DNA of 64,000 bases from Planctomycetaceae bacterium (GTDB lineage: Bacteria; Planctomycetota; Planctomycetia; Pirellulales; PALSA-1355): the NCBI GenBank assembly GCA_003153375.1, contig PLYM01000174.1:15007-79006 (forward strand). Reading direction: 5' to 3'. Below, one piece after another: positions 49,639-63,203 of this stretch. A model generated the notes under the pieces. That model made no database searches and was not told the DNA's origin. It saw nothing but the letters and a program-made list of their open reading frames with translations. Within the stretch, counting starts at the first letter, position 1. Every line of letters begins with the position of its first letter. The translations under genes were made by a program, and so were the position numbers.

Positions 49639-50724
49639 CTACTCGTCAGCTCCGGCATTCCAGATCTTGGTTTTCTCGGCCTCGCTCGGTTCGTGTAGCG
49701 GTCGCACCACGCGAAAGCCCAGGAACAACGCGTCAGTAAAATACCAGATGCTCTGCGGCAACTGCGGGTCTTGCTGCTTCCAATCTCGGTTCGAGCCCAC
49801 GCGCGCCGAACTGCGCAGCCCGCTGGGATCACCATCCCACGAGCCGCCGCGCGTGGCCTGCGGATAGAGTTTCGTCGGAATGGCCCAAGGATTCTTGCTC
49901 GACTTGCCGGCAAACTGTTTGTAGAAGTCCGGAATATATTGGTCGAGCGTCCATTCCGCCACATTGCCGTGCATGTCGTAGAGGCCCCACGGGTTGGGCT
50001 TCTTGACGCCCACCTTGTGGTACTTGTCCTCGCTATTGTCGAAATACCAGGCATATTCGCCGAGCTGCGCCGGGTCGTCGCCAAAGTGATAGGCGGTTTT
50101 CGAGCCGGCGCGGGCCGCGTACTCCCATTCGGCTTCGGTGGGCAGCCGGTAGTAGCGGCCCGTCTTGGCACTGAGCCATTTGCAATAGGTTTTGGCGGCC
50201 AATTGCGTCATGCAAATCGCCGGAAATCCCTCCTTGCCCATGCCGAAGGTCATGTCCGTATACGGCTTCGTCGGCCGCGTGACCGCGTCGGCCTGCTTTT
50301 CCAATTCGCTGGCCGCGACCTTATTGAGCTCGCGGCGTTGGATATCGAGACTAAACATCCAGATTTCATATTCGTTCCACGTGACTTCGCACTTGCCCAT
50401 CCAGAACGGTTCGATCTCGACTTCGTGCTGCGGGCCCTCGTCCTCCTTGCGATCGGCTTCCGTGTCGGGGCTGCCCATCAGGAAGCGGCCGCCGGGAATC
50501 GGCACCATCTCGAACGTCACGTCGCCGTTGGCAATCACCTCGGTGTAGGGTTTCATCTCGCCCTGGGTCTTAGCCGTGGCGTTTTTCACTTCAGCCGGCG
50601 TCTTGGTCGCGTCGGCCGCCACCGTGTGCGGAAGTTGAACGACCACCAGAGCAAAAATCGAAACAGCGGCCACGCACGCGCGCCGCATTTGCATCCTTGC
50701 CCGCGGCGAGATTACGCTATGCAT
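49639..50724 (-). CDS. Formylglycine-generating-enzyme family protein (SUMF1/FGE-sulfatase domain)
   Basis: 361 aa with a signal peptide. GGRFLMGSP...[60 protein letters not shown]. Confidence 0.85.
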
Positions 50725-50816
50725 AACTGGGAATCCTCGTCAGGCATTCTTCGCAGGCCGACACCGATCCCCCGACGCCGCCCAAATTGCTGACAGCGAG
50801 GAGGCCGAGGCCCGCG

Positions 50817-51869
50817 ATGAAGAGGTTGCCTGTTGTGTTGTTGTGGGTATTGTTTCTCGCGCCGTGCACCTCGCTCGCGGCCGCGCCGGAGGGCGGCGAA
50901 CTGGAGCGGTTTGAGTCCACGCAACGCGAGATGGGGGTGCCATTTAAGATCATATTGTATGTTCGCGACCAGACGGCTGCAAACCGCGCTTTTCAGGCCG
51001 CGTTTTCGCGGATTTCCGAGTTGAACCAGGTGCTCAGCGACTACGACGACCAGAGCGAGCTGAGTCGACTGACTCGAACCGCCCCGTCGCCAAAACCCGT
51101 GCCAGTCAGCGATCCGTTGTGGCTGGTGCTCGAGCGATCGCAGCAACTGGCCGAACAAACGGATGGCGCATTCGACGTGACCGTCGGACCCTACGTGCGG
51201 CTGTGGCGCCGCGCGCGGCGCTCGAAGGAAATGCCCTCAGCCGAGCGACTCGCCGAAGCCCGCGCCGCGGTCGGCTACAGGTTTCTGAGGCTTGATCCGG
51301 AGCACCACATGGCCCAGTTGCTGCGGCCCCACATGCGGCTCGACCTAGGCGGTATCGCGATGGGCTACGCGGTCGACGAGACCCTGAAGCGATTGCGCGA
51401 GCTGGGCATCACCCGGGCCCTGGTCGATGCCAGCGGCGATATCGGCGTCGGCGATCCTCCGCCGGGCAAGGCAGGTTGGACCATCGCCGTCGTACCGCTG
51501 TCACACGAAGGCACGCCCACGAAGCAGATCCTGCTAGCCAATGCGGCGGTTTCGACAGCGGGCGATGCGTTTCAACACGTCGTCATCCTCGGCCAGCGCT
51601 ATTCGCACATCGTCGATCCGCACACCGGATTGGGCATGACCGATCGAGTGGGCGTCACGGTGGTCGCCGCCGATTGCCTTACGGCCGACGGCCTGGACAC
51701 GGCCGTGGCCGCGCTCGGCCCCGCGCGGGGCCTGGAATTGGTCGAAAAGACACCTGGCGCTGCAGCGTTCCTGGTCCGACCGCGGGAAGAGGGCGAGCCC
51801 GAGGTTTTTGAATCGAGCCGCTTCGCGCGCTACGTCATCCCATCCGAGCCGCAGCCGATCGAGAAATAA
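50817..51869 (+). CDS. apbE: FAD:protein FMN transferase
   Basis: Start moved to ATG 50817 (signal/lipobox MKRLPVVLLWVLFLAPC). DGAFDVTVGPYVRLW, LDLGGIAMGYAVDE, LVDASGDIG, SHIVDPHTG are ApbE motifs. Confidence 0.85.
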   Translation: MKRLPVVLLWVLFLAPCTSLAAAPEGGELERFESTQREMGVPFKIILYVRDQTAANRAFQAAFSRISELNQVLSDYDDQSELSRLTRTAPSPKPVPVSDPLWLVLERSQQLAEQTDGAFDVTVGPYVRLWRRARRSKEMPSAERLAEARAAVGYRFLRLDPEHHMAQLLRPHMRLDLGGIAMGYAVDETLKRLRELGITRALVDASGDIGVGDPPPGKAGWTIAVVPLSHEGTPTKQILLANAAVSTAGDAFQHVVILGQRYSHIVDPHTGLGMTDRVGVTVVAADCLTADGLDTAVAALGPARGLELVEKTPGAAAFLVRPREEGEPEVFESSRFARYVIPSEPQPIEK

Positions 51870-51901: not shown

Positions 51902-54202
51902 ATGCCCCGCAATCTGAATCCATTCCCCCTTGACCGCATCCTCACTGCTGTCGTTGGAGCGCTCGTGTTTCTGCCGTGCGATCTGGCGCGGGCTGACTTT
52001 CCCAACCCTCACGCGGCCGATTTGCCGCCGCGCACGTTGATTGGCACGCCGGCCAAGCGCGACGTGCCGACGTGGTTGCAGACGAACCTCCGGGTCGGCC
52101 ATTTGCCCGGTTACAACGAGCGGATGGTAAGCGAGTTTCTCAAGGCCGGTTACAACGTCGTGACCGTCAACTGCCTCGGCACTTGGGACCGTGTCGGACC
52201 GTCGGCCGACCTTTACACTTCGGAAGAGGTCGCGCGGGCCGATGCTTACCTGCGACAGGTTGTCGACAAGATTCACGCCGCGGGCGCCAAGAGCGTGCTT
52301 TATGTCGGACCGGTACAGGTGCCGATGCTGAGCAAGGAATTTCGCGCGGCGCATCCGGAGTGGCTGCGCGTGAAAAGCGACGGCGGCCGGGACGAGAATT
52401 TCGGCAACATACGTAGCGGCTATGCCGACTGGCTCTGCGAGCAGTTGGCCTATGTCGTCAAAACCTACCAGGCCGATGGATTCTGGTTCGACGGCTATGC
52501 GCCGGTCCATTTGCACACCTATGATGACGACACGCGCAAGGCGTTCCGTGAATTCTCTGGCGGCCACGACATCCCCAGTCAATTCGACCTGGTGCGCGAT
52601 TCGATCGCGCGGCAATATCTGGGTTGGCACGAGCAGTACTTCGTCGACCTGGCCGATCGCATGCGGGGAGCGATCCGAGGCGAGAACGCCGAGGCGGTCA
52701 TCTTTGCCAATTACTCGGCGAATCGCACCTGGTACTATCCCGACATGTATATGGGCGAGTATCCGGCGGCCTACGGCGGCGCGGTCGACGTGGCTTCGGT
52801 CGAACTGTATTGGGATGTGCCCGGCGACGCGCTCTATCAACAGTTCTGTTGTGCGTTCGTGCAAGCCGTGACGCACGATCGCGGCGGATCGGTGTGGATT
52901 CAACCGCAGTCGCACGGCATCTCGGGCGTGTCCTCGCCGCTTGAGATTCAGCTTCGCGGGCTCGAAGGCGCGCCCTGGGGTGTCTATCCGGAATTCGTTG
53001 AGTCGGCGCTGCGGGAAGAGTATTTCAAATTGCACGTCAGCAATGTCAAGGCTCGCGAGGCCTGGTGGATTAAGTCGCAGCCCGTGCCCTACATTGGCAT
53101 CGTGGCCTCGGAACAGACGCGAGCGTTGTTTGCACAGGGTGCGTTGCCGGTCTACTTTTCGCACACGCTGGGCGCGTTTCGAGCGGTCTTCGAGAAGCAC
53201 TGGCCGGTGCGAGTGCTGACGGAATATGACCTGGAAGACGTCGACTTGCAGGGCGTGCGCGTACTGGTCCTGCCGAACGTGGCCTGCCTGTCGGAGCGCG
53301 CGGCCGAAGTCGTGCGCCGCTTCGTGGCCGCCGGCGGCGGGCTCGTGGCCAGCTTCGAGACCGGCCTGTATGACGAATCGTTCACGCGGCGTGACGACTT
53401 TGTGCTGTCCGATCTATTGCACGCCCATTACGTGCGGTCGCACGCCGTCAGCGTTCGCACCGATAACCTGTATCTCAAGCTCGAAGGCGAGCACCCGATC
53501 ACGGCGGATTCGGCCATTCGAACCAGGCAAGCCACGGCCTGGGCCGGGGGCCTGGGTGAGCCGCCCGCGGCGGGTGAATTGGCGCTGATCGCCAGTGCTG
53601 TCGAGGCCAAGGTGGCCGAGGGGGGCCAGGTGCTGGCGACCTATCGACTCAATCAGGCCGACGCCGGCAGCGGGCGGCATCCGGCAATCATCGCCTCGTC
53701 GTTCGGCAAAGGGCGCGTCGTGTACTTTCCGGCCAGCGTCGATAAGGGCATGTTCTTCTATCCCGACGCCTACATGCGCCAGATGCTCACGGCCGCTTGC
53801 CGTTGGACCGCCGGTGACGACGCGCCGCCGGTTGAAGTCGAAGGACCGCTGGTGTTGGCTACCACCACACGCCGGCAGCCAGAAAAGGGACGAACGATCG
53901 TGCACCTGCTGAACGATCATAGCTCTTACGGCCGGCACTCGATCTACCAGAAGCTGGCCGCGCTGCCCGAGGAGTTGCAAAAGAAATGGGGCTTTCCGAA
54001 TCAGTCCGAGCTGCGCGGAACGTGGCCGGTGCGCGAGGAGCTGATTCCGCTGCACGACATTCGGGTGAAATGTCGCGTGCCGGGCGTGAAGAAGGCCACG
54101 CTTGAGCCCGAACATCTCGATTTGCCGCTGGAACACCTCGAAGACGCTGTGCAGGTGACAGTGCCCAAGCTTTTGATGCACTCGATGGTGGTTTTCGAGT
54201 GA
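51902..54202 (+). CDS. Putative glycoside-hydrolase-like protein (GHL6-type TIM barrel + beta-galactosidase-trimerisation-like / class I GATase-like domain)
   Basis: 766 aa with a signal peptide. GYNVVTVNCLG...ADGFWFDGY resembles GHL6-type barrels. VRVLVLPNVACLSERAAEVVRRFVAAGGGLVASFETG resembles the GH42 middle domain. The family assignment is recalled, not searched. Confidence 0.5.
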   Translation: MPRNLNPFPLDRILTAVVGALVFLPCDLARADFPNPHAADLPPRTLIGTPAKRDVPTWLQTNLRVGHLPGYNERMVSEFLKAGYNVVTVNCLGTWDRVGPSADLYTSEEVARADAYLRQVVDKIHAAGAKSVLYVGPVQVPMLSKEFRAAHPEWLRVKSDGGRDENFGNIRSGYADWLCEQLAYVVKTYQADGFWFDGYAPVHLHTYDDDTRKAFREFSGGHDIPSQFDLVRDSIARQYLGWHEQYFVDLADRMRGAIRGENAEAVIFANYSANRTWYYPDMYMGEYPAAYGGAVDVASVELYWDVPGDALYQQFCCAFVQAVTHDRGGSVWIQPQSHGISGVSSPLEIQLRGLEGAPWGVYPEFVESALREEYFKLHVSNVKAREAWWIKSQPVPYIGIVASEQTRALFAQGALPVYFSHTLGAFRAVFEKHWPVRVLTEYDLEDVDLQGVRVLVLPNVACLSERAAEVVRRFVAAGGGLVASFETGLYDESFTRRDDFVLSDLLHAHYVRSHAVSVRTDNLYLKLEGEHPITADSAIRTRQATAWAGGLGEPPAAGELALIASAVEAKVAEGGQVLATYRLNQADAGSGRHPAIIASSFGKGRVVYFPASVDKGMFFYPDAYMRQMLTAACRWTAGDDAPPVEVEGPLVLATTTRRQPEKGRTIVHLLNDHSSYGRHSIYQKLAALPEELQKKWGFPNQSELRGTWPVREELIPLHDIRVKCRVPGVKKATLEPEHLDLPLEHLEDAVQVTVPKLLMHSMVVFE

Positions 54203-54210
54203 ACGGCGAT

Positions 54211-55476
54211 TTACTTCGCCGGGTTCTCGCCGCCCAAACACCACAAGTGGCTGGCACTTCGCATGAAGATGCGGCCGGCGGAGATGGCCGGCGAGGCGTA
54301 GACGAGCTGATCGATCGTGTTGCGGGACAATTCTTCGAACTGTTTGGTGTGTGCGCGAATCACGAGCGTCGTGCCGGTTTCGTTGGTAAAATAAATTCGG
54401 CCGTCGGCCGAAACCGGCGACGAAGTAAAGTCGCCGCCAAACCGCTTCCGCCAGACTTGCTTGCCGGTCGCGGCGTCGAGACAGGTGCCAATGCCGTGAT
54501 CGTCGGCAATGTAGTAATAGTCGCCGACCAGGATGGCGCTCGGCACGTAGGGATTGCCGCGCGTGCTCGTCCAGACGACGTGCGAATCGGTCACATCGCC
54601 GCGGCCGCCGGGCCTCACGGCGAAGCTGGCGGCACCTGGGCCGCTGACGGCGTAGATCAGCCCGTGGCCAATCACCGGCGTGGGAATGCACTCTCGCGCC
54701 ATGCCGCGCAACGTCCACAGCGGCTCGCCGCTACGCGGGTCGAGGGCGTCCATCTTTTCAGACGAACACAAGATGAGTTCCCGGACGCCCGCGTCGCCGG
54801 CCGGCGCGCTGATGGGTGACGACCACGAAAGCCACACGCCGGGCCGGTCGGTTTTCCATCGATTGGCGCCGGTACGCTTGTCGATTGCCAAGGCATAAGA
54901 AGGACCAAAGTGATCGCATTGCACGATCAGCAAGTCTTCAAACAGCAGCGGGGAACTCGACGCGGCAAATCGATTTTCGAACACGCCATATTCGTTCGAC
55001 AGGGCCCGCTGCCACTCGAGCCGGCCGGACATATCAAAGCAAAACACATCGCCGCTGCCGAAGAAGGCGTAGATATGTTCGCCATCGGTCACGGGCGATG
55101 GGCTGGCCATGCTGCTCTTGGTCTCGTGGTGCAACGTGGGCGCGGTGCCCCACATTCGGGCGTGCCACAATTGCCGGCCGCCATCGCGGTCGAGACACAC
55201 CACGTGCAATTCTTCCTGACGAGCGCCGTCCGAGCTGGTGCAGATGACCATGCGGTCCCAGACGATCGGGTTCGAGATTCCCGAGCCGGGAAGAGGGACT
55301 TTCCACTGAACTCCGGAATCCGCCGACCAGTTCAACGGTGCGCCCTGATCGGTCGTCACTCCATTGCGCTCGGGCCCACGCCAGCCTGGCCAGTTCTCGC
55401 CGCGCGCGCTGGCGAGCCCAATGCAGGTTGCCGCCAAGCCTGCGACACACGCAAACCGCCGCCATGCTCGCATCAT
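54211..55476 (-). CDS. PQQ-like beta-propeller repeat protein (BamB-family fold), secreted
   Basis: 421 aa with a signal peptide. ENWPGWRGPERNGV...WKVPLPGSGISNPIV is the standard opening of planctomycete PQQ-like propeller proteins. The W/G-rich blade pattern repeats. Confidence 0.75.
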   Translation of the reverse strand: MMRAWRRFACVAGLAATCIGLASARGENWPGWRGPERNGVTTDQGAPLNWSADSGVQWKVPLPGSGISNPIVWDRMVICTSSDGARQEELHVVCLDRDGGRQLWHARMWGTAPTLHHETKSSMASPSPVTDGEHIYAFFGSGDVFCFDMSGRLEWQRALSNEYGVFENRFAASSSPLLFEDLLIVQCDHFGPSYALAIDKRTGANRWKTDRPGVWLSWSSPISAPAGDAGVRELILCSSEKMDALDPRSGEPLWTLRGMARECIPTPVIGHGLIYAVSGPGAASFAVRPGGRGDVTDSHVVWTSTRGNPYVPSAILVGDYYYIADDHGIGTCLDAATGKQVWRKRFGGDFTSSPVSADGRIYFTNETGTTLVIRAHTKQFEELSRNTIDQLVYASPAISAGRIFMRSASHLWCLGGENPAK

Positions 55477-56696
55477 GGGGACGCCTCGGCCGGTGGTGGC
55501 GACACGACGCCGAGCGGAATTCCTTTGCCGTTCTCATCGCAGAAACGGAGCTGCAACGACCAGTTGTTGGCCACTTGCGGATCCTTGTTCGGGGGCCCCT
55601 GACAGACTTTTACCAGCAATTCGTTGGGACCCCGCTTCAGCCGCACAGTCGCCCGAAAGCGGTCAAAGCGAATGCCGTTGAGCCATTGCTCGCGCGAGAA
55701 GACTTTCTGGCCATTGAGCCAGACCGTGCAATTATCGTCGGCCCCACAGCGCAGCTCGGCGGCGCGGTCTGCGGTGGCCACGACCTGGGCATAGGCATAG
55801 CCGACGGCCTCCTGGCAGGGCGCCAAGGCCGCGACCAGGTTGACCAGGCCCAAAGCATCCGAAGTGCGATGACGAAGCCAGCCGATCGGCGCGCCCAGTT
55901 GCCCGGGATACTGCTCGCCAAGAACGACGCGCTTCTCGGGTGGAAACTCGCGTGAGAAGCCGGTGAAGCGGGGCGCGTCGAACGGGCCGATCAGCCACCA
56001 GTCGATCACCAGGCCCAGGTGGGCCGCGATGTCAACCTGCTCGCCGAAACCAGAGAGCTTCGCGGCCGCGCGAGCTGTCTGGTTGCCGTCGCGCGAGTGC
56101 TCGAATGCCTGGCGAAACGCGTCGCGAGCCGCCTCCGAGTCACCGGCGTCAACCGCCTCTTGCCCGACCGCCAACTCGCGCTCGACCGCGTCGTCGCGAA
56201 ACTCGGGATCGTCGAGCATCCTTGGAATCAACTGTGCCGAGTACTGTGGGTCGAGGCGGTCGCAAAGCCCCAGAACGAGTCGGCGCACTCGGCCCTGGTG
56301 CCGTGGGTCGAGGACGAACTCGTGCAATTCCGCCACGGGGAACTGGGGAGACGTCTTTTGAAACTCGCGCTCGACGATCGACTCGTAAGCCGAGCGATAC
56401 CAATTGGCTGCCACGGGGTTCTCGGTTTCCATGGCAGTCAACAGCCGCGGTAGCACGTCGGTGCCTTTCGCGGCCAAGGCCTGCGAGGAGGCCTGGGCCG
56501 CGGCCGATCCGGCGCCGTGTGGACCGACGGCGGCGATCTTGGCCAAATGTTGGCCGACGTCATCGCCGGCGTGCCCCCATGCGAACGGCGCGGCCAAGAA
56601 GGATGCCGCCAGGCCAGCCAAGCATGCCGTTACATTGTGCATCCTTGGGATGACTGGCCGCCGAAGCCGACGCAGGCTGTGTTCCTGCAACTTCAT
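55473..56696 (-). CDS. Secreted hypothetical protein: helical (HEAT/ARM-like) N-terminal half + beta-sandwich C-terminal half
   Basis: 407 aa. ATGA-coupled on both sides (56693-56696 and 55473-55476). The C-terminal CGADDNCTVWLNGQKVF...NELLVKV resembles galactose-binding-like jelly rolls. I did not recognise a family. Confidence 0.55.
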   Translation of the reverse strand: MKLQEHSLRRLRRPVIPRMHNVTACLAGLAASFLAAPFAWGHAGDDVGQHLAKIAAVGPHGAGSAAAQASSQALAAKGTDVLPRLLTAMETENPVAANWYRSAYESIVEREFQKTSPQFPVAELHEFVLDPRHQGRVRRLVLGLCDRLDPQYSAQLIPRMLDDPEFRDDAVERELAVGQEAVDAGDSEAARDAFRQAFEHSRDGNQTARAAAKLSGFGEQVDIAAHLGLVIDWWLIGPFDAPRFTGFSREFPPEKRVVLGEQYPGQLGAPIGWLRHRTSDALGLVNLVAALAPCQEAVGYAYAQVVATADRAAELRCGADDNCTVWLNGQKVFSREQWLNGIRFDRFRATVRLKRGPNELLVKVCQGPPNKDPQVANNWSLQLRFCDENGKGIPLGVVSPPPAEASP

Positions 56697-59482
56697 TTGG
56701 CAGCGCGTCGAAAGGAGTCTTTAATGAACCCGGGCAGCTTGTCGAACTCCTCCTTGGATATCCGACCATCTTTGTTCGTGTCGAAGGTGGTCATGAGTAC
56801 TCGAAAGTTCTCGGGAATTGCGAGTCCCTCGGAAGGAAACGGCGGCTCCGGCTTGGCAACGGGCTTCGCTGGGGTTTCTGGCTTAGCGGGGGCCTCTGCC
56901 TTGGGTTCCGGAGCGGCTGGATCACCTTGAGCAACGGGATCTGCGGCCATGTCCTCCTCGGCCGGCTCTTCCATGGCCTCTTCCGCCGCCGGCTTGCTGG
57001 CTGGCACTTCCTTGAGCCCGGCCAGCTTGCGAACCTGGCTCTTCCAGAGGTCGGGCAACTTGTCGTATTCTTGGCGCGAGATTTTACCGTCTTTGTCGAG
57101 GTCGAAATTAGCGGTCAGAGGCTTCAAGTTCTCGGGAATCGGCACGCCGCCGGCGGGATACTGTGCGGCTGTTTTGGCGACGGATTTCGGCGCGGGCTTG
57201 GTCGGCGGCTCGTCGGCCGCTTCGGACGCGTCGTCAGCGGCGGTCTCCTCGACCGGTGGAGCAGCGACCTTGCGGGCCACGGACTTTTTCGGTCTGACCG
57301 CATCGGCCGGCTCTTCCTCGGCGAGGGCGGGCTCGGACTCAGCTGGTTCCGATGCCGTGGCGGCGGCGGGCTGAGGCGCCAACAAGCGGCGGACCAAGGC
57401 CTTCCAGGCTGACGGCATCTTGTCATACTCGCCACGAGCGAGCCGGCCGTCTCGGTTCAGGTCGTATTTGGCGAACACGTCGCGGCAGTCTTCAGGAATC
57501 AGAAAGCCGGCCAAGGGAAAACTGGTGCCGCCCTTGCTGGCTGCTTTCGGCGGCGTTTTGGCACGGGCGGTTGCGCGGGCCTTCGGCTTGGGCTCCTCAG
57601 TCGCGTCGGCGGCGGATGCCGCCGCGTCAGCATCATCCGCCGCCTCGGCAGCGACCGGTTTGGCGGTTCGACTCTTGGCTGCCGGCTTACTCGTTGCGGG
57701 CCGCTTTTTGGTTTCCTCGTCGCCGGCGGCTGCGTCCAGCTTGATCGCCGGTTCGCCGCTACCCGGCTTGGACGACGCTCCCCGGCGAATCAGCACTTGC
57801 AACGGTTCCGGCATGGCCTTGAATTCTTCACGCGATAGCCGGCCGTCCTTGTCGAGGTCGTATTGGCCGAGCAATATCTTCGAATTTTCGGGAATCACCA
57901 TGCCCTCGGCCGGAAACGCCCCGCCCGCTTTCCCCGTGGCCTTCTTCGCCTTTACGGGCGGTTTTTCTTGAGGTTCGTCCTCGGCGACCTCGCTGGGCGG
58001 GGCGGCCGCGCTGGCCACGAGTTGGCTCTGCCGCCGTTCAGCCATCTTCTTGGCAATTACTTCTTTCGCGGCCTTGTACTTGTCGGCCACTTTTTGCGCG
58101 GTGGCTTTCTTGCGTTCGTCCTCCGCCTGGCCCGGAATGCCTCCTTCAAGACAGGCGCCCAGTTCGTTGCCGCGCATCTCGGCGATTTGTTTCAGATCGC
58201 TGCTGCGGTCGGCGAACACTTGCACGCCGCACAGGCACATCTCGTCGGTTGTCTGTTCGCCCCAGCGAATCGCCTTCGGAGGCTTGAACGGGTTCTTGGG
58301 GTTGGCCTCCGAGTTGTCGTAGATCGCCTTGACGTTGATCGTCGAGCCCTTGGGCAGCTTGACGGGCTTTTCGAACTGATAGGCGCCCTGCCAGTTGAAA
58401 TCCCAATCCTTGATCCAGACCAACGGCACTTCGCTGTTATTGGGCAGCCTCGCCACGACTCTGAACTCGCGACCCAAATTGTGCATGTGAGGAGTCAGCG
58501 CCAGCACATTGACGGCAACGGGCAGCGGATGACTCTCGGCCGTGATCTCACAATGGGCATCGCCGGCCGGGATTTTCAAGCCCGTCTGCAAGACCGCGAT
58601 GCCAGAGACGATCTTGCTCATCATCGGCTTCTTGGAAAAATGGATGCCCACCACCGATTGATCGCTTTCGACCTTGCCGGTCGGGTGATAGTGGACTTGC
58701 AAGACCAGGTCGCTGCCCTGGGCCACGTATTTGACCAGCCCATCGGGAAGCAAGCGCGGCATCGAGCCCGGCGTCCACGATCCCAGGCCACCGGTCGGCT
58801 TGATGACCGGGCCGCCGAAGCTGGGAAAGCCTGGTTTGCCGTCAAGGCCTTCGAGCTGCTTCGCTGCGCCGTTGGCATCGAGAAACATGATCGCGTGGTG
58901 GACGACCTTGGCATTGCCCGGGCGAAATTCCACGCCGCTAATCAGCTTGCTGGCCTCGAGCGGAATGGGAATCACGAAGCAGCGATAGATATCGCGACCA
59001 CCGGCCGGCACGCGGAACGGCTCGGACATCTTGAGCAGCAGGTCGGGCTCGCCTAACTGCCAGCCGTCGGGGAAGGTCGGGGGCGGCGGCAGGCTCGCGG
59101 CGTCGCCCTCAGGCGCTTCGTCGGCGGCCCAGGTTGCGATCAGCTCGATTTCCTTATCGGTCAAACGTCGCTCGTCGCAAAACTTGTTAGCGCTGGGCTC
59201 GGCCTTCCAGGGAGGCATTCGCCGGCTCGTGGTGACCTCCGCCAAAAAGTCGGCCCGCTTCGCGGCGTCATCGTAACTCAATAGCGAGAAGGGACCGACT
59301 TCGCCGGGGCGATGGCACCCGGCGCAGTTCTTTAGCAAAATCGGCGCGATATGTTTCGCGTAGGTCACCTTGGCGGCAGTCGCATCCTTGGCGGCCACCC
59401 GCGCGGCGCCCAGTGCTCCCAGCACTGCCGCCAGCACAAACCACGAAAGCCTCGGGGACCGCCTGGACCCGTTAGTCATCAC
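56693..59482 (-). CDS. Secreted fusion: planctomycete-type cytochrome c domain + PHM/DBH-like copper type II monooxygenase core + four EF-hand modules
   Basis: 929 aa. Haem motif CAGCH (res 53-57) in the PSCyt-like context HIAPILLKNCAGCHRPGEVGPFSL. Copper ligand pattern VVHHAIMF (195-196), LQVHYH (264/266), PHMHNLG (332/334), TDEMC (Met415). Four canonical EF loops: DLDKDGRLSREE, DLNRDGRLARGE, DLDKDGKISRQE, DTNKDGRISKEE. Confidence 0.8.
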   Translation of the reverse strand: MMTNGSRRSPRLSWFVLAAVLGALGAARVAAKDATAAKVTYAKHIAPILLKNCAGCHRPGEVGPFSLLSYDDAAKRADFLAEVTTSRRMPPWKAEPSANKFCDERRLTDKEIELIATWAADEAPEGDAASLPPPPTFPDGWQLGEPDLLLKMSEPFRVPAGGRDIYRCFVIPIPLEASKLISGVEFRPGNAKVVHHAIMFLDANGAAKQLEGLDGKPGFPSFGGPVIKPTGGLGSWTPGSMPRLLPDGLVKYVAQGSDLVLQVHYHPTGKVESDQSVVGIHFSKKPMMSKIVSGIAVLQTGLKIPAGDAHCEITAESHPLPVAVNVLALTPHMHNLGREFRVVARLPNNSEVPLVWIKDWDFNWQGAYQFEKPVKLPKGSTINVKAIYDNSEANPKNPFKPPKAIRWGEQTTDEMCLCGVQVFADRSSDLKQIAEMRGNELGACLEGGIPGQAEDERKKATAQKVADKYKAAKEVIAKKMAERRQSQLVASAAAPPSEVAEDEPQEKPPVKAKKATGKAGGAFPAEGMVIPENSKILLGQYDLDKDGRLSREEFKAMPEPLQVLIRRGASSKPGSGEPAIKLDAAAGDEETKKRPATSKPAAKSRTAKPVAAEAADDADAAASAADATEEPKPKARATARAKTPPKAASKGGTSFPLAGFLIPEDCRDVFAKYDLNRDGRLARGEYDKMPSAWKALVRRLLAPQPAAATASEPAESEPALAEEEPADAVRPKKSVARKVAAPPVEETAADDASEAADEPPTKPAPKSVAKTAAQYPAGGVPIPENLKPLTANFDLDKDGKISRQEYDKLPDLWKSQVRKLAGLKEVPASKPAAEEAMEEPAEEDMAADPVAQGDPAAPEPKAEAPAKPETPAKPVAKPEPPFPSEGLAIPENFRVLMTTFDTNKDGRISKEEFDKLPGFIKDSFRRAAK
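56696..57916 (-). repeat. Four intragenic ~45-aa repeat modules (FP-x-G-x-IPE ... EF-hand ... KxP) separated by Ala/Pro/Glu/Lys-rich linkers
   Basis: Residues ~523-566, 655-700, 775-820 and 882-929 of the 929-aa protein: FPAEGMVIPENSKILLGQYDLDKDGRLSREEFKAMP / FPLAGFLIPEDCRDVFAKYDLNRDGRLARGEYDKMP / YPAGGVPIPENLKPLTANFDLDKDGKISRQEYDKLP / FPSEGLAIPENFRVLMTTFDTNKDGRISKEEFDKLP. Confidence 0.85.
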
Positions 59483-59739
59483 CCAGTCCTTGAATTTGAT
59501 GTGCTCTCTGCCCCGTGGCCCCGCCCCGATTCGGCGGCGGCCGACGACCCCATCATAATCGATCCGTTCGCGGTTTGGCCACGTCTGGGGCTGGAAGGGG
59601 GGCGATTAACTTCAAGCCGAGGCCGCGCCCGGCACAGCATAACGGAGCAATATGAGCGGCCAATGAAGGAAGATCGTCCGGCAGGTGTGGCCGCCTGCAC
59701 GAATTGCCTGGCCGCCCGGAAGATTTATCCCGACCGCGT

Positions 59740-60861
59740 TTACTCGGGTGTTTCGCTCTTGGGCATCTCCGCGATCCACTGACGCACCAATTCGGCTCCT
59801 TCGGCGTGAATGAGCCGTTTGCCCAACTCGGGCATCATAATGCCCGGATCGATCGAGTTGATGCGAAACGTGATAATGGACTTGTCGGGGTCTCCGGGCA
59901 CGATGTCGTAGTCGCGCCCGCCGGAGCCCCGTCCGGCCGCCACCGGGGCTTTGAAGATGCCGAACCGGGTTGGGCCGTCCTCGCTGGCCAGCAGATTTAA
60001 GCCCGTGTTGCGCGCGGGTCCAGCGGGATTGTGACAATGAGCACAATTCATCTCGAGCCAGGCTCGGGCCCGCTGGTCGAGCGAGCCGGTGGCCGGTTCG
60101 TTCCACACGGCCAGCCGGGGGGCGTCTTGGGGCGAGGGTGATCCAGCGAGCGCCTTGGTACGGGTCCAATAGGCCAGTTGGTTTTCGCTGCCGTGGGCAT
60201 AGGTGAAGTCCCGATTCAGGTGCCGCGCTTTCGGCCCGATCGGCAGGAAATCGTCGCCCAAGCGATGACAGCCCTTGCACTGGTTCGAATTGGGAATGAT
60301 GTAGTTGTTCGTCCGCTCCTGACCAGCGATGTCGATCCATTTGACGTCGACCAGCTCGCCGGCAACCTCGAGAACCGCTTCAGTCTGCGCAGCGTTCCAG
60401 ATATAGGGCAAGCCAACCCAGCCCTGCGGCTCGCGTTTCAGAATGCGCGTCTCGAGCAATCGCCGACCGAGCCTCGGGTCGCGGGCATCGACGGGATAGG
60501 CGAACGTCTTGGCAATGACGGTGCCCACGGGAAAGACGAACGACTCGTCCGCGCGATACTCGGCGCTCGTGCCCTGCGGCAGTTTGACGAAGCGGAATTT
60601 CTCGGTGTAGTCGGAAAACAGTGGCGTGTTCAAGTCGTAGGGAGTGACCCCTTCAACGGGCTCTTGCGAGCTGCCGTTGCCGGTGAACAGGCCATACTCC
60701 GAGAGCTTCTCGGGCGCCAACGACCGGTCGCCACTCTGACCGCAGCCGCCGAGCGCGAGCGTGAACATCGCCGTGGCGATCACGCCACGCACTCGCCATC
60801 CGTATGAAGCCGCTGCCACCATCATCTCATCATTGCATTGGGCGCCGCGCGAGGCAATCAC
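59740..60861 (-). CDS. Dihaem c-type cytochrome (SO_2930 / HNE_0200-like family), lipoprotein
   Basis: 373 aa. Two haem motifs, CKGCH and CAHCH. Lipobox FTLALGGCG. C-terminal GDPDKSIITFRINSIDPGIMMPELG. GTG 60861 overlaps the upstream stop; alternative ATG at 60825. Confidence 0.75.
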   Translation of the reverse strand: MIASRGAQCNDEMMVAAASYGWRVRGVIATAMFTLALGGCGQSGDRSLAPEKLSEYGLFTGNGSSQEPVEGVTPYDLNTPLFSDYTEKFRFVKLPQGTSAEYRADESFVFPVGTVIAKTFAYPVDARDPRLGRRLLETRILKREPQGWVGLPYIWNAAQTEAVLEVAGELVDVKWIDIAGQERTNNYIIPNSNQCKGCHRLGDDFLPIGPKARHLNRDFTYAHGSENQLAYWTRTKALAGSPSPQDAPRLAVWNEPATGSLDQRARAWLEMNCAHCHNPAGPARNTGLNLLASEDGPTRFGIFKAPVAAGRGSGGRDYDIVPGDPDKSIITFRINSIDPGIMMPELGKRLIHAEGAELVRQWIAEMPKSETPE

Positions 60862-62138
60862 TTGACGCCGGCTATGGTGACGGGGCTCAGCTTCGGCCGT
60901 TCGCCTTCAAAGGGCTTGAGGTCGCGGCTGACCTTGTCGCGCTCCTTGTCGAGCGCGAAGGCGTTGCTCAGGTCGAGCTTCGGAAAATTGAGGTTGATGA
61001 AGTCGGCGTCGCCGTTGTCACGGATGCGAATCGCCAGCTTTTCGGGCAATGCACCGTCGACGGCCTTCTTTTCGTCAACGATCCCGTCATAGACGATGGC
61101 CGGCACCTTCGGGCTGGCCGCCAGGGTCGAGACCAGCTTGGGCAACACGCCGCTCGGCTTTTCGCCGCCCCCGACGAATTGGTTATCGTGTACGAAAATC
61201 GATTCGCAATAGGGGTCGTAGCCCTCATCCTGCTGGTAGCGGCGCTGCGTGATGATGAAGCTGCAAATCGAGAGGCCAATGCTCTGGTTGTTCTCGATCT
61301 TGTTGTCGAAGATCTCGACGTCGCGGTTGGCCAGAATCATGATGCCCGTGCCGGCCGGCACGTTGGCCACGGTGTTGCCCTTGGGCGCGAAATTGTCGTG
61401 GTTGTTGGCGATGATCTGATTGTTATAGACGCGACAGTGACGGCCGACCTTCACTTTCAGATCCGGCAGCGAGAAAACCAGGATGCCGCCGGTGTTGCCC
61501 GTGGCCGTATTCTCATAGACGTCCGCGTTGATTGAATTCTCGATCTCAATGCCGGCCACGTTGTGCTCGGCCGTGCAGTGGCGGACGATGATGTTCTCGC
61601 TCTGGCCGACGTAGATGCCGGCGTCCGAGGCATCGCGGGCGACGCACTTTTCGATCAGCACGTTCTTGCACAGCACCGGATAGAGACCATAGCCGCCATT
61701 GGTTTCCTTTGGTCCGCCCGTCCAACTGGTGCGCACGTCGCGAAACACGATGCCGTCGCAGCCATTGACTTTGATGGCGTCGCCCTTGGCGTCTTCGACG
61801 GCCAGGCCCTCGATCGTCACCTTTTCCTTGCTCGTGACCAGGATGCCTTCGCCGCCGGTGCCCTGGCCTTGTTGATCGAAGGCCAATACCGTCTTGTCGC
61901 TGCCTTGTCCGCGAATCGTGACATCGCTCACGTCGAGCGAGAGGGTCGAGTTGAACGTGAATTTGCCTTCACCAAACTCGATCACTTCGCCGGGCTTGGC
62001 GTTGATCATCGCCGTCTGGCCGCGCTTCTGAGCGTCGTCGCCCGCGGCGATTTTCGTAACCTTGACGGCCTTCGCACACCCACTGGCGGTCACGAGCAGA
62101 CAAGCGAGCCACACCAGACGCGAGCAAGACGTTTGCAC
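60858..62138 (-). CDS. Parallel beta-helix repeat lipoprotein (the usual partner of the dihaem cytochrome family)
   Basis: The track ORF starts at 62300. I prefer GTG 62138, which is preceded by AAGGAG at 7-nt spacing and yields the lipoprotein signal VQTSCSRLVWLACLLVTASGC. Repeated beta-helix rungs (GIVFRDVRT, NVLIEKCVARDASDAGIYVGQSENIIVRHC, NVAGIEIENSINADVYEN, NTGGILVF). Confidence 0.8.
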   Translation of the reverse strand: MQTSCSRLVWLACLLVTASGCAKAVKVTKIAAGDDAQKRGQTAMINAKPGEVIEFGEGKFTFNSTLSLDVSDVTIRGQGSDKTVLAFDQQGQGTGGEGILVTSKEKVTIEGLAVEDAKGDAIKVNGCDGIVFRDVRTSWTGGPKETNGGYGLYPVLCKNVLIEKCVARDASDAGIYVGQSENIIVRHCTAEHNVAGIEIENSINADVYENTATGNTGGILVFSLPDLKVKVGRHCRVYNNQIIANNHDNFAPKGNTVANVPAGTGIMILANRDVEIFDNKIENNQSIGLSICSFIITQRRYQQDEGYDPYCESIFVHDNQFVGGGEKPSGVLPKLVSTLAASPKVPAIVYDGIVDEKKAVDGALPEKLAIRIRDNGDADFINLNFPKLDLSNAFALDKERDKVSRDLKPFEGERPKLSPVTIAGVK

Positions 62139-62321
62139 AGACGATCTCCTTCGGAATGGATTGACAACGGGCCGATCAATTGCCAGAAAATGGCCGATCG
62201 GCGCCTCCCGTGTCCCGGAACGGATGCGGGCATTATAGCCAAAAAGGGGGCCGTGCCCAGCGGTTTTAGGCCCGGCGTCACGGGTATATGTTCGCCGCAT
62301 GCCGATTGGCTGGGGCGACGG

Positions 62322-63203
62322 CTAGCCTCGCCAGGCGGCGGCGTCTTCGCCGTCCAGCCGCAGTGTCAGGCACTTGGCGCTACCGCCGGCTTTGACGAAC
62401 TCGCCGAGCGGCGTCTCGAAGGTCGAAAACCCGCGAGCCTCCAGTGCGCGGTGCAATTCGGGGCATTCGGTATTGGTGATCACGCTGCGGCCCACGACGA
62501 CGGCGTTGCAGGCGAATCGACGGGCTTCGTTGCTGCTGACGGCGATCAACTCCTCGACGGACTCGGCCAGCGCCCGGCGGCCGTAGTCGTCGAACGCGCC
62601 GGGGTAATAAATGGCCATGCCGGGCGACAACGGGCAAAAGCACGTGTCGAGGTGGTAGTAGTAGGGATCAACCAGCTCGAGCGGAATCACGCGGCAGGAG
62701 AACATCACGCCGATTTGCTGATGCCCCGCCACGTCGCTGCGAATGCGGTATCCGGCAAACAGCGTGTCGCCACAGAAAAGTGCGTCGCCGGCGCCCTCGA
62801 AGTACACCCCTACGGGCAGCTTGTCGACCGTGAACCCGGACGCGGTCAGCCAGGCTTCATCGCAGGCCTCTTCGCCCTGTCGCTCCGGATAACGAAACCG
62901 CGCCAGCACGGCCCGGTCGCGATAGATCATTGCCGCGTTGGCCGTAAAGACCAGGTCGGGCAAGCCGGAGACCGCATCGAGCAGCAACACCCGGGCGCCG
63001 ACTTGTTCGATCAGCCGCCGCAGCGATTCCCATTGCGATGCCACCAGCGCTGGATCGGCCTGCTTCTGCCGGCTCATCCAAGGGTTGATCTCGTACAAGA
63101 TGCCATAGTGGTCGGGCGGACACATCAGGATCCGTGGCTGGCGGCTCGTGAAGTCGAACGCCGCCGTTGAGCGCGCGGGCTTCCGTTCCTCCGGCGCGTT
63201 CAT
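62322..63203 (-). CDS. Guanidino-group-modifying enzyme (amidinotransferase / arginine dihydrolase / DDAH fold)
   Basis: 293 aa. ILMCPPDHYGILYEINPWM opening, YFEGAGDALF, HLDTCFCPL, and the C-terminal catalytic-Cys context GGSAKCLTLRL. Confidence 0.75.
   Translation of the reverse strand: MNAPEERKPARSTAAFDFTSRQPRILMCPPDHYGILYEINPWMSRQKQADPALVASQWESLRRLIEQVGARVLLLDAVSGLPDLVFTANAAMIYRDRAVLARFRYPERQGEEACDEAWLTASGFTVDKLPVGVYFEGAGDALFCGDTLFAGYRIRSDVAGHQQIGVMFSCRVIPLELVDPYYYHLDTCFCPLSPGMAIYYPGAFDDYGRRALAESVEELIAVSSNEARRFACNAVVVGRSVITNTECPELHRALEARGFSTFETPLGEFVKAGGSAKCLTLRLDGEDAAAWRG

Follow-up and report, generated by a model that had tools for sequence, protein, structure and literature searches.

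A predicted haem c-linked copper monooxygenase of the PHM/DBH type with a four-EF-hand tail, and the bacterial family to which it belongs

PHM and DBH, textbook enzymes of animals, produce amidated neuropeptides and noradrenaline, and both are fed with electrons by ascorbate. Their mechanism, in which electrons have to travel a long way between two copper sites lying about 11 Å apart, is still debated. The stretch of DNA analysed here (hereafter the window: 64,000 nucleotides of contig PLYM01000174.1, positions 15,007 to 79,006, from the assembly GCA_003153375.1 of a Planctomycetaceae bacterium) raises the question of whether a bacterial enzyme of this type could carry an electron source of its own. 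A sequence-only reading of the window had described one of its genes as encoding a single secreted protein of 929 residues that unites a cytochrome c domain, a complete PHM/DBH-type copper core and four EF-hands. Pfam, profile and fold matches confirm that this protein, by its sequence an exported one, has three parts: a cytochrome c domain of the CxxCH/Met kind, a PHM/DBH fold of two domains and four loops of the EF-hand type. Moreover, the residue numbers of its motifs (CAGCH 53-57, HH 195-196, H264/H266, HMH 332-334, M415 and the four loops) proved correct, with the GTG codon at 59482 counted as residue 1, a numbering kept throughout; the reading had left the strand unstated, and the gene lies on the minus strand. 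We consider it probable, at roughly 0.6, that the protein is an exported three-cofactor oxidoreductase of the periplasm or the cell envelope, whose invariant cassette, consisting of a c-type haem domain and a non-coupled two-copper monooxygenase core of the PHM/DBH type, would be driven by electrons delivered through the haem.

The assignment of the copper core is based on both profile and fold comparisons. In particular, the Pfam model Cu2_monoox_C (PF03712, cutoff 23 bits) matches the protein over residues 307-418, with 28.6 bits in the full sequence and 30.4 bits in residues 1-470, and among 31 relatives it recognises 30, with Cu2_monooxygen (PF01082) recognising 16 at E <= 0.01. Residues 1-470 were modelled with AlphaFold2 from 31 homologues, and the model reached a predicted local distance difference test score (pLDDT) of 80.8 and a predicted template-modelling score (pTM) of 0.77. 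When this model was compared with the PDB by Foldseek, the top 31 matches were all PHM (E down to 2e-13), human DBH came next (E = 2.6e-11), and nothing else was comparable. The PHM matches have template-modelling scores, normalised to the target, of 0.56-0.66 over about 300 columns, at an identity of 16-20 %. At the level of sequence, the family profile matches rat PHM in hmmsearch (E = 1e-9), pairing VHH(195/196) with H107/H108, QVH(264)Y with H172 and H332-M-H334 with H242-T-H244, and this alignment ends before the methionine ligand. The latter is covered by an hhalign comparison of the whole-family profile with the deposited PHM sequence, whose residue numbering was verified (probability 97.4 %, E = 8.9e-12, 240 columns), and in which WGEQTTDEM(415)C is aligned with IGGTSSDEM(314)C; a profile built from the C-terminal copper domain by itself had no match in the PDB. 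In other words, the two alignments together pair all six ligands with those of PHM, as had been proposed: H195/H196/H264 with H107/H108/H172 in the electron-entry site (CuH), and H332/H334/M415 with H242/H244/M314 in the O2/substrate site (CuM). The reading, which misaligned His/Met residues would have refuted, thus passes that test. The choice between two histidines for the third CuH ligand is settled as well, the counterpart of H172 being H264 and not H266. The Cu2_monoox_C, EF-hand and PHM profile and fold matches are far beyond chance, and, save for the Pfam threshold of the N-terminal copper domain, the protein shows the sequence and structural traits by which the PHM/DBH family is defined.

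The ligands are conserved well outside the immediate relatives of the protein. Specifically, in an alignment of 82 relatives spanning Planctomycetota, Acidobacteriota, Armatimonadota and others, where the conservation counts for distant members are alignment-based, H196, H264, H332 and H334 are present in every sequence, and H195 and M415 in 81 of the 82. Residues surrounding the sites follow the same trend: Q262, which aligns with PHM Q170, is kept in 78/82, Q365 (58388-58390), which aligns with Q272, is invariant among close homologues, and Y166, the equivalent of PHM Y79, is semi-conserved (Y in 44/82, F in 24/82). By contrast with these, the residues that anchor the peptidylglycine carboxylate in PHM, namely R240, N316 and Y318, are replaced by T330, L417 and G419, in columns that are variable or hydrophobic across the 82 relatives, which argues that the substrate is not a peptidyl-glycine. 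Three further positions close to the ligands were observed. H266 (58685-58687) and Y265 adjoin the CuH ligand H264 and are found in 82/82 relatives, although neither is a ligand in PHM, which has Y-G there; and M333 (58484-58486), flanked by both histidines of CuM, is a position occupied by Met in 58/82 relatives and by Ala in 22/82. An influence on the copper sites or on the path of the electrons is conceivable for all three residues.

The haem domain is as constant as the copper core. C53, C56, H57, M89 and W92 are kept in 82/82 relatives, and 146 of 150 representatives have the haem motif or domain, these 150 being the top ones of the 17,133 cluster representatives described below, over which all architecture counts out of 150 were made; its absence from the remaining ones may reflect truncated sequences, as in the truncated P0121. 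The Pfam model Cytochrome_CBB3 matches 31/31 family members at E <= 0.01 and rises above its cutoff in one of them (P0122, 34.1 bits). Among the weak profile matches of the domain in the PDB, 20 of 24 are c-type cytochromes, mostly c6, with the CxxCH and the 'RMP' axial-Met motif aligned, and hhalign compares the domain to cytochrome c6A with a probability of 44 % (E = 2.3e-4). These lines of evidence, each weak alone, are mutually consistent and suggest a class I-type cytochrome c in the N-terminal domain, with a weak resemblance to the c6 or cbb3-CcoP type. The label 'planctomycete-type' originally given to the domain had to be dropped, as PSCyt1 (PF07635) fails to match the protein at E <= 1 or any of 31 relatives at E <= 0.01; of the Pfam models by which the protein was expected to be recognised, Cu2_monoox_C was thus found, whereas Cu2_monooxygen and PSCyt1 were not. 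A short GWxxGxP connector joins haem domain and copper core, and its invariance argues for a fixed, functional juxtaposition of haem and copper. With the motif, the domain and this connector so widely kept, the idea that a built-in haem could replace ascorbate as the electron donor is plausible.

In the reading that we favour, the haem c domain would take single electrons from a periplasmic respiratory carrier, for instance a cytochrome c in soluble form or a donor linked to quinol, and would hand them to CuH (His195, His196, His264), thereby playing the part that ascorbate has in the animal enzymes. CuH would in turn reduce CuM (His332, His334, Met415) across the interdomain cleft, as suggested by the conserved ligand set and the fold, and CuM would bind O2 and oxidise, most likely hydroxylate, a C-H bond of the substrate. 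The latter would be periplasmic and, with the anchors of PHM replaced, something other than a peptidyl-glycine. The four EF-hand modules are predicted to bind Ca2+ and would most likely form an accessory module for assembly or anchoring, for example through EF-hand pairs formed inside one molecule or across two, or as a tether of the enzyme in a Ca2+-rich envelope. Two proteins co-translated with the enzyme in a Pirellulales clade, one of 407 residues and the other a BamB-like propeller, would be candidate partners or substrates.

The tail that carries these modules is well defined. The four EF-hands already seen in the sequence are recognised by Pfam as EF-hand_5 (E = 7.6e-21) and EF-hand_1 (E = 3.4e-16), each in four stretches above cutoff, and the four loops are of the canonical 12-residue type (D-x-[DN]-x-D-G-x-[ILV]-x-x-x-E), no coordinating position being lost in any of them. 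Compared among themselves, the modules have 38-44 % identity as protein and 50-59 % as DNA, and no DNA tandem repeat was found in their region, which rules out a recent repeat expansion as well as an assembly or slippage artefact; the low protein identity rather indicates that the duplications are old and have been maintained. The protein is a member of the family to which NCBI gives the name 'ascorbate-dependent monooxygenase' (for example P0066 and P0087 of Tundrisphaera), with 57-72 % identity over the cassette, and it shares with that family the invariant residues and the EF module with its conserved G-x-P-I-P-E (PxxGxxIPE) lead-in. Family members typically have one module or none, whereas the window protein has four, on long low-complexity linkers: among the 120 closest homologues, 108 carry one module, ten none and two carry two. 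As 108 of them carry exactly one, the combination of haem c, PHM core and EF-hand is the standard architecture of the clade. Consequently, the statement that no characterised enzyme has this architecture stands as far as the literature searched is concerned, while the architecture itself turned out to be common. The four-module form is rare, but not unique to the window protein, as an exhaustive search returned two other cases: the orthologue P0121, 96 % identical and with the same tail, and the unrelated P0265, whose four modules sit on short linkers behind a core just 46 % identical, and in which the array is, judging from the sequences, of independent origin. Where a protein with one catalytic unit carries several EF modules, their number is two or four and, in this small sample, never three, which fits the pairing of EF-hands. 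Furthermore, 46/81 surveyed species' proteins and 131/150 representatives lack any EF-hand and keep every catalytic residue. The tail thus appears to behave as a swappable accessory module and not as part of the catalytic machinery, since so many members are without EF-hands or have TPR, FGE-like or other modules in their place.

This interchangeability is best appreciated in the family as a whole. The cassette of haem and copper domains has at least 7,700 word-indexed relatives, and when 1.84 billion cluster representatives were searched exhaustively, matches numbered 17,133 at E <= 1e-3, 10,426 at E <= 1e-10 and 3,715 at E <= 1e-30; a scan of one genome per species found it in at least 579 species. 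The family is distributed over Planctomycetota (Pirellulales, Isosphaeraceae, Gemmataceae, Planctomycetaceae), Acidobacteriota (Bryobacterales, Terriglobia and others), Armatimonadota and a few more taxa, and some of its members, called 'ascorbate-dependent monooxygenase' by NCBI, are 'mono/diheme cytochrome c family protein' in the naming of JGI. A C-terminal tail of at least 90 residues is present in 79/150 representatives, and in 48 of these 79 it consists of a TPR array (for example P0163, P0170, P0179, P0196 and P0221). The other tails are EF-hands, FGE-sulfatase domains (P0137, P0269), one TIG domain and one PD40 propeller (found in P0156 and P0193), or an AhpC/TSA redoxin, a range which suggests that the C-terminal slot holds swappable targeting or partner-binding modules. 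Whole units can also be multiplied, as in P0122 (1064 residues), with two cytochrome c-PHM units and three EF modules in one polypeptide, or in P0123 (1251 residues), with two redoxin-cytochrome c-PHM units and hydrophobic segments between them. As a matter of speculation, substrates that are macromolecular or linked to thiols are suggested by the fusions with TPR, FGE-like and redoxin domains. Within this database-visible and apparently unstudied bacterial family, the window protein is, by its sequence, ordinary in all but its tail, whose four EF-hands are unusual.

Several findings weigh against a haem-fed monooxygenase. Cytochrome_CBB3 scores just 20.2-21.3 bits on the window protein (E = 3.4e-4 to 7.6e-4), below its cutoff of 27, and a model of the isolated haem domain without its haem (pLDDT 76, low around the haem pocket) gave nothing better than E = 2.4 in Foldseek; poor quality is to be expected when a haem protein is modelled in its apo form. 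Cu2_monooxygen has no match at E <= 1 in the window protein, and in the relative P0193 it scores 25.4 bits, below the cutoff of 30. As this threshold is not reached, the homology of the N-terminal copper domain rests on the profile matches to the PDB and on the fold. Moreover, the five disulfides of PHM are not conserved, the partners of the C81 and C315 equivalents being absent, and a compensating C168-C416 disulfide finds no support, both cysteines being partly conserved without co-variation; the loss of disulfides and anchors together places the protein outside the PHM subfamily. Nor does gene context help, since clustering of the flanking open reading frames of 81 loci revealed no family-wide operon partner pointing to a substrate, separate neighbour families being confined to at most 9 loci; redoxin genes do not stand out as a cluster of their own in that analysis because a fusion protein joined them to the monooxygenase cluster. 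The frequent redoxin itself, linked to 55/81 loci, could mean peroxide or thiol chemistry instead of a simple O2-dependent hydroxylation, and yet none occurs near the cassette in the clade of the window protein or within the 64-kb window. Finally, measurements of metal content, haem attachment, activity or substrate were found in the literature for no family member. The literature searched, which lay mostly outside subscription journals, so that a description elsewhere is possible, held no paper on bacterial cytochrome c-PHM fusions; PHM is treated as eukaryotic in one article (PMC8812541), and a review of PAM phylogeny (PMC6529398) never mentions bacteria.

The redoxin is also the starting point of an alternative in which the enzyme would be an oxidase or would handle peroxide. 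Haem c electrons would reduce O2 or H2O2 at the coppers, or CuM would use H2O2, for scavenging of oxygen and reactive oxygen species or as a soluble terminal oxidase, with the redoxin taking part in the same peroxide/thiol chemistry. This thioredoxin-fold domain of the AhpC/TSA-Redoxin type (Pfam E = 2e-15), with a CPxSN motif and a C-terminal Cys, is encoded directly upstream, often overlapping, or is fused in frame N-terminally to the haem domain in 52/81 loci, while another 3 have it downstream or in the vicinity; among the representatives it is fused N-terminally in 46/150 and C-terminally in 7/150. Examples occur in loci L010-L082, such as the separate genes of L035 (6411-6998) and L018 (6174-6752) and the fusions of L050 (5327-8248), P0123, P0137 and P0190, and none of 23 N-terminally fused forms has an EF-hand. 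Neither residues equivalent to the substrate anchors of PHM nor conserved neighbours belonging to a substrate pathway were found, as would suit an enzyme of this kind. What makes it unlikely is that the PHM fold and the His3 / His2Met ligand set are near-invariant, and in the characterised PHM, DBH and TBM this very set serves the oxidation of substrate C-H bonds; besides, the clade of the window protein does without a redoxin in 64 kb, and the CPxS motif is neither a typical peroxiredoxin site nor a CxxC site. Candidate roles for the redoxin itself are those of a peroxide scavenger, a thiol handler or a maturation factor for copper or haem. Somewhat less probable again is the proposal, made in the sequence-only reading, that Ca2+ gates the enzyme, so that the EF-hand array would act as a switch that repositions the tail or the domains and toggles electron transfer or substrate access. 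Four loops with intact coordinating positions, at least one EF module in 110/120 closest homologues and a P-x-x-G-x-x-IPE lead-in that suggests a defined structural unit are in keeping with it; the proposal is weakened by the many members that keep all catalytic residues without an EF-hand, by the TPR, FGE-like, TIG or PD40 modules that occupy the same position in others, and by linkers of 57-82 low-complexity residues, which set the modules of the window protein far from the core in sequence. Periplasmic or extracellular Ca2+, moreover, is not usually a dynamic signal, and an assembly or anchoring module seems the more likely function of the EF-hands.

Two other arrangements concern the direction and the source of the electrons. 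Fused cytochrome c domains are electron exits in several periplasmic dehydrogenases, for instance the quinohaemoprotein dehydrogenases, and a PQQ_2-type beta-propeller is co-translated with the enzyme, so the flow might be reversed: the copper core would oxidise the substrate and pass electrons through haem c to the respiratory chain, as a dehydrogenase instead of an O2-activating monooxygenase. We regard this as very improbable, since the His2Met site of CuM is the hallmark of O2 activation in the PHM fold, and since the propeller matches BamB-like PQQ_2 repeats, scores far below the cutoffs of the NCBIfam models for PQQ dehydrogenases and is confined to the closest relatives. The NCBI product name, on the other hand, would make of the relatives true ascorbate-dependent enzymes, either peptidylglycine alpha-hydroxylating or DBH-like, and PHM is indeed the best match in both structure and sequence. 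Such an identity has hardly any likelihood in view of the unconserved anchors R240, N316 and Y318, the identity to PHM of just 16-20 % and the lack of a gene for a PAL-like lyase nearby; the fusion of a haem domain throughout the family speaks for a donor that is itself a protein, and ascorbate has no known role as a periplasmic reductant in these phyla.

A haem-fed, PHM-type monooxygenase would resemble several known systems in part. With the rat PAM core (PHM; 1PHM, 1OPM, 1SDW) it shares the fold of two beta-sandwiches, the six copper ligands, an identical DEMC motif and the residues aligned with Q170, Q272 and, as Y or F in 68/82, Y79. It differs in its low identity, in the missing anchors and disulfides, and in the addition of the invariant Y265 and H266 and of the N-terminal haem c domain; it would be a bacterial, periplasmic protein, as opposed to one of the secretory granule, it has no PAL partner, and its reductant is presumably not ascorbate. 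With human DBH (4ZEL) and TBM/MOXD it has in common the catalytic core and the presence of an extra domain ahead of it. In DBH this is a DOMON domain, a fold which binds haem in other proteins, whereas the N-terminal domain of the window protein, a predicted covalent c-type haem domain, is unrelated to DOMON; likewise, its C-terminal region holds EF-hands where DBH has a dimerisation domain. Haem-wired enzymes are also known, namely the cytochrome c-fused copper nitrite reductases, the cytochrome domain of cellobiose dehydrogenase that feeds lytic polysaccharide monooxygenases, and the quinohaemoprotein dehydrogenases. The principle would be the same, a haem domain built into the enzyme and connecting its catalytic metal site with a redox chain outside, while their catalytic domains are unrelated to those of the window protein, and no description of a haem-wired CuH/CuM pair of the PHM/DBH type was found in the literature.

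The interest of these findings lies chiefly at the level of the family, a bacterial one with thousands of members in which every copper ligand is kept and an electron source in the form of haem is likely built in; a haem-wired, ascorbate-free system of the PHM type with swappable modules would be more remarkable than the single locus. If the wiring of haem to copper is true, it would provide a self-contained system for electron transfer from CuH to CuM, which could be triggered by light or electrochemistry and read through the haem spectrum, it would show that PHM-type chemistry can do without vitamin C, and it would open the search for periplasmic C-H oxidations in abundant bacteria of soil and water (Planctomycetota, Acidobacteriota). 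The fusions with thioredoxin-fold, TPR and FGE-like domains are concrete starting points for experiments, and the window protein, as a rare elaboration with four EF-hands, would be useful for asking what the Ca2+ module does. A wider view, tentative and on balance doubtful, is that the cassette is the heart of a vast class of periplasmic monooxygenases powered by the respiratory chain and free of ascorbate, which would modify envelope proteins or glycans, with the modules directing targets and partners, and of which PHM and DBH would be a derived offshoot.

As for the gene itself, its open reading frame is uninterrupted according to the list of reading frames and the translation, and two start codons are in competition. 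GTG 59482 gives 929 residues, and ATG 59479, the very next codon, gives 928. The ATG, preceded by AAGGA 8 nt upstream, a typical spacing, has a better ribosome-binding context than the GTG, and public gene calls start there. Specifically, the 928-residue product is on record, nameless in both NCBI and ENA, from a 128-kb ENA metagenome contig (k141_749608) with the same gene order, whereas an exact-sequence look-up of the 929-residue product had no match. The true start is thus probably ATG 59479, and the mature protein is identical with either. By eye, the N-terminus has a basic n-region, a hydrophobic core and a VAA motif, and was read from the sequence as a putative Sec-type signal peptide; export is required for the covalent attachment of haem in cytochrome c maturation. 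NCBIfam has no model for the 929-residue protein. In the 260-bp gap upstream of the coding sequence, a sigma-70-like promoter match was seen at 59552..59581 on the minus strand, and it is merely suggestive, because one site was found where 0.7 are expected by chance. The features of the protein and of its surroundings are collected in the table.

Table. Positions in the window of the monooxygenase gene, its parts and its neighbours
Feature	Position	Strand	Details
Complete coding sequence	56693..59482	minus	stop TGA 56693-56695; from the list of open reading frames and translation
Putative export signal, residues 1-31	59390..59482	minus	MMTNGSRRSPRLSWFVLAAVLGALGAARVAA/KD; read from sequence
Cytochrome c domain, residues 38-135	59078..59371	minus	CAGCH residues 53-57, 59312-59326; putative axial Met89 (RRMPPWK), 59216-59218
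Connector GWQLGEP, residues 140-146, haem domain to copper core	59045..59065	minus	G140, W141, G144 and P146 invariant in the alignment
PHM-like N-terminal beta-sandwich with CuH (electron-entry) site	58613..59065	minus	H195/H196, 58895-58900; H264, 58691-58693
PHM-like C-terminal beta-sandwich with CuM (O2/substrate) site	58193..58612	minus	H332-M-H334, 58481-58489; M415, 58238-58240
C-terminal tail with four EF-hand modules, residues 451-929	56696..58132	minus	Ala/Pro/Lys/Glu-rich low-complexity linkers of 57-82 residues
EF-hand module 1, residues 521-570	57773..57922	minus	loop DLDKDGRLSREE, residues 542-553, 57824-57859; FPxxGxxIPE lead-in
EF-hand module 2, residues 653-702	57377..57526	minus	loop DLNRDGRLARGE, residues 674-685, 57428-57463
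EF-hand module 3, residues 773-822	57017..57166	minus	loop DLDKDGKISRQE, residues 794-805, 57068-57103
EF-hand module 4, residues 880-929	56696..56845	minus	loop DTNKDGRISKEE, residues 901-912, 56747-56782
Exported protein, 407 residues, conserved partner in a Pirellulales clade	55473..56696	minus	ATGA overlap with the monooxygenase coding sequence; junction sequence
PQQ_2/BamB-like beta-propeller, 421 residues, third gene of the unit	54211..55476	minus	ATGA overlap; Pfam PQQ_2, E = 1.1e-41
SO2930-family dihaem c-type cytochrome, upstream neighbour	59740-60861 or 60858-62300 (pair with the beta-helix gene)	minus	TIGR03806, E = 5e-121
Parallel beta-helix/NosD-like protein, overlapping the SO2930-family gene	one of the pair 59740-60861 and 60858-62300	minus	TIGR03805, E = 6e-119
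FGE-sulfatase-domain protein	49639-50724	minus	
ApbE flavin transferase	50787-51869	plus	
765-residue protein	51902-54202	plus	
DDAH-like protein	62322-63203	minus	

The genes around the monooxygenase are shared with its closest relatives. The 407-residue protein has no match in Pfam, NCBIfam or the PDB; its 548 homologues are all 'hypothetical' and all from Pirellulales, and at least 10 of them are encoded on contigs that also hold a monooxygenase homologue, one pair having adjacent NCBI locus tags. The synteny of the two genes holds in the homologous loci L001, L002/L004 and L084, and the propeller gene is conserved in the closest relatives only (L001, L002, L084), so that the trio is clade-specific. 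By eye, the C-terminal third of the 407-residue protein looks like a beta-sandwich (VWLNGQKV...). Upstream, the SO2930-family cytochrome and the beta-helix protein form a known gene pair, whose synteny with the monooxygenase unit extends to L001, L002 and L084. None of these four neighbours is a candidate for a family-wide partner, as they recur in the closest relatives only.

Among the other nearby genes, the one for the 765-residue protein has weak matches to Glyco_hydro_42M, ThuA and GHL6. The presence of an FGE-like gene may or may not be coincidental, since two family members carry an FGE-like domain fused to the cassette. Genes of the ApbE and FGE-like types are also found near the homologous loci L001 and L002.

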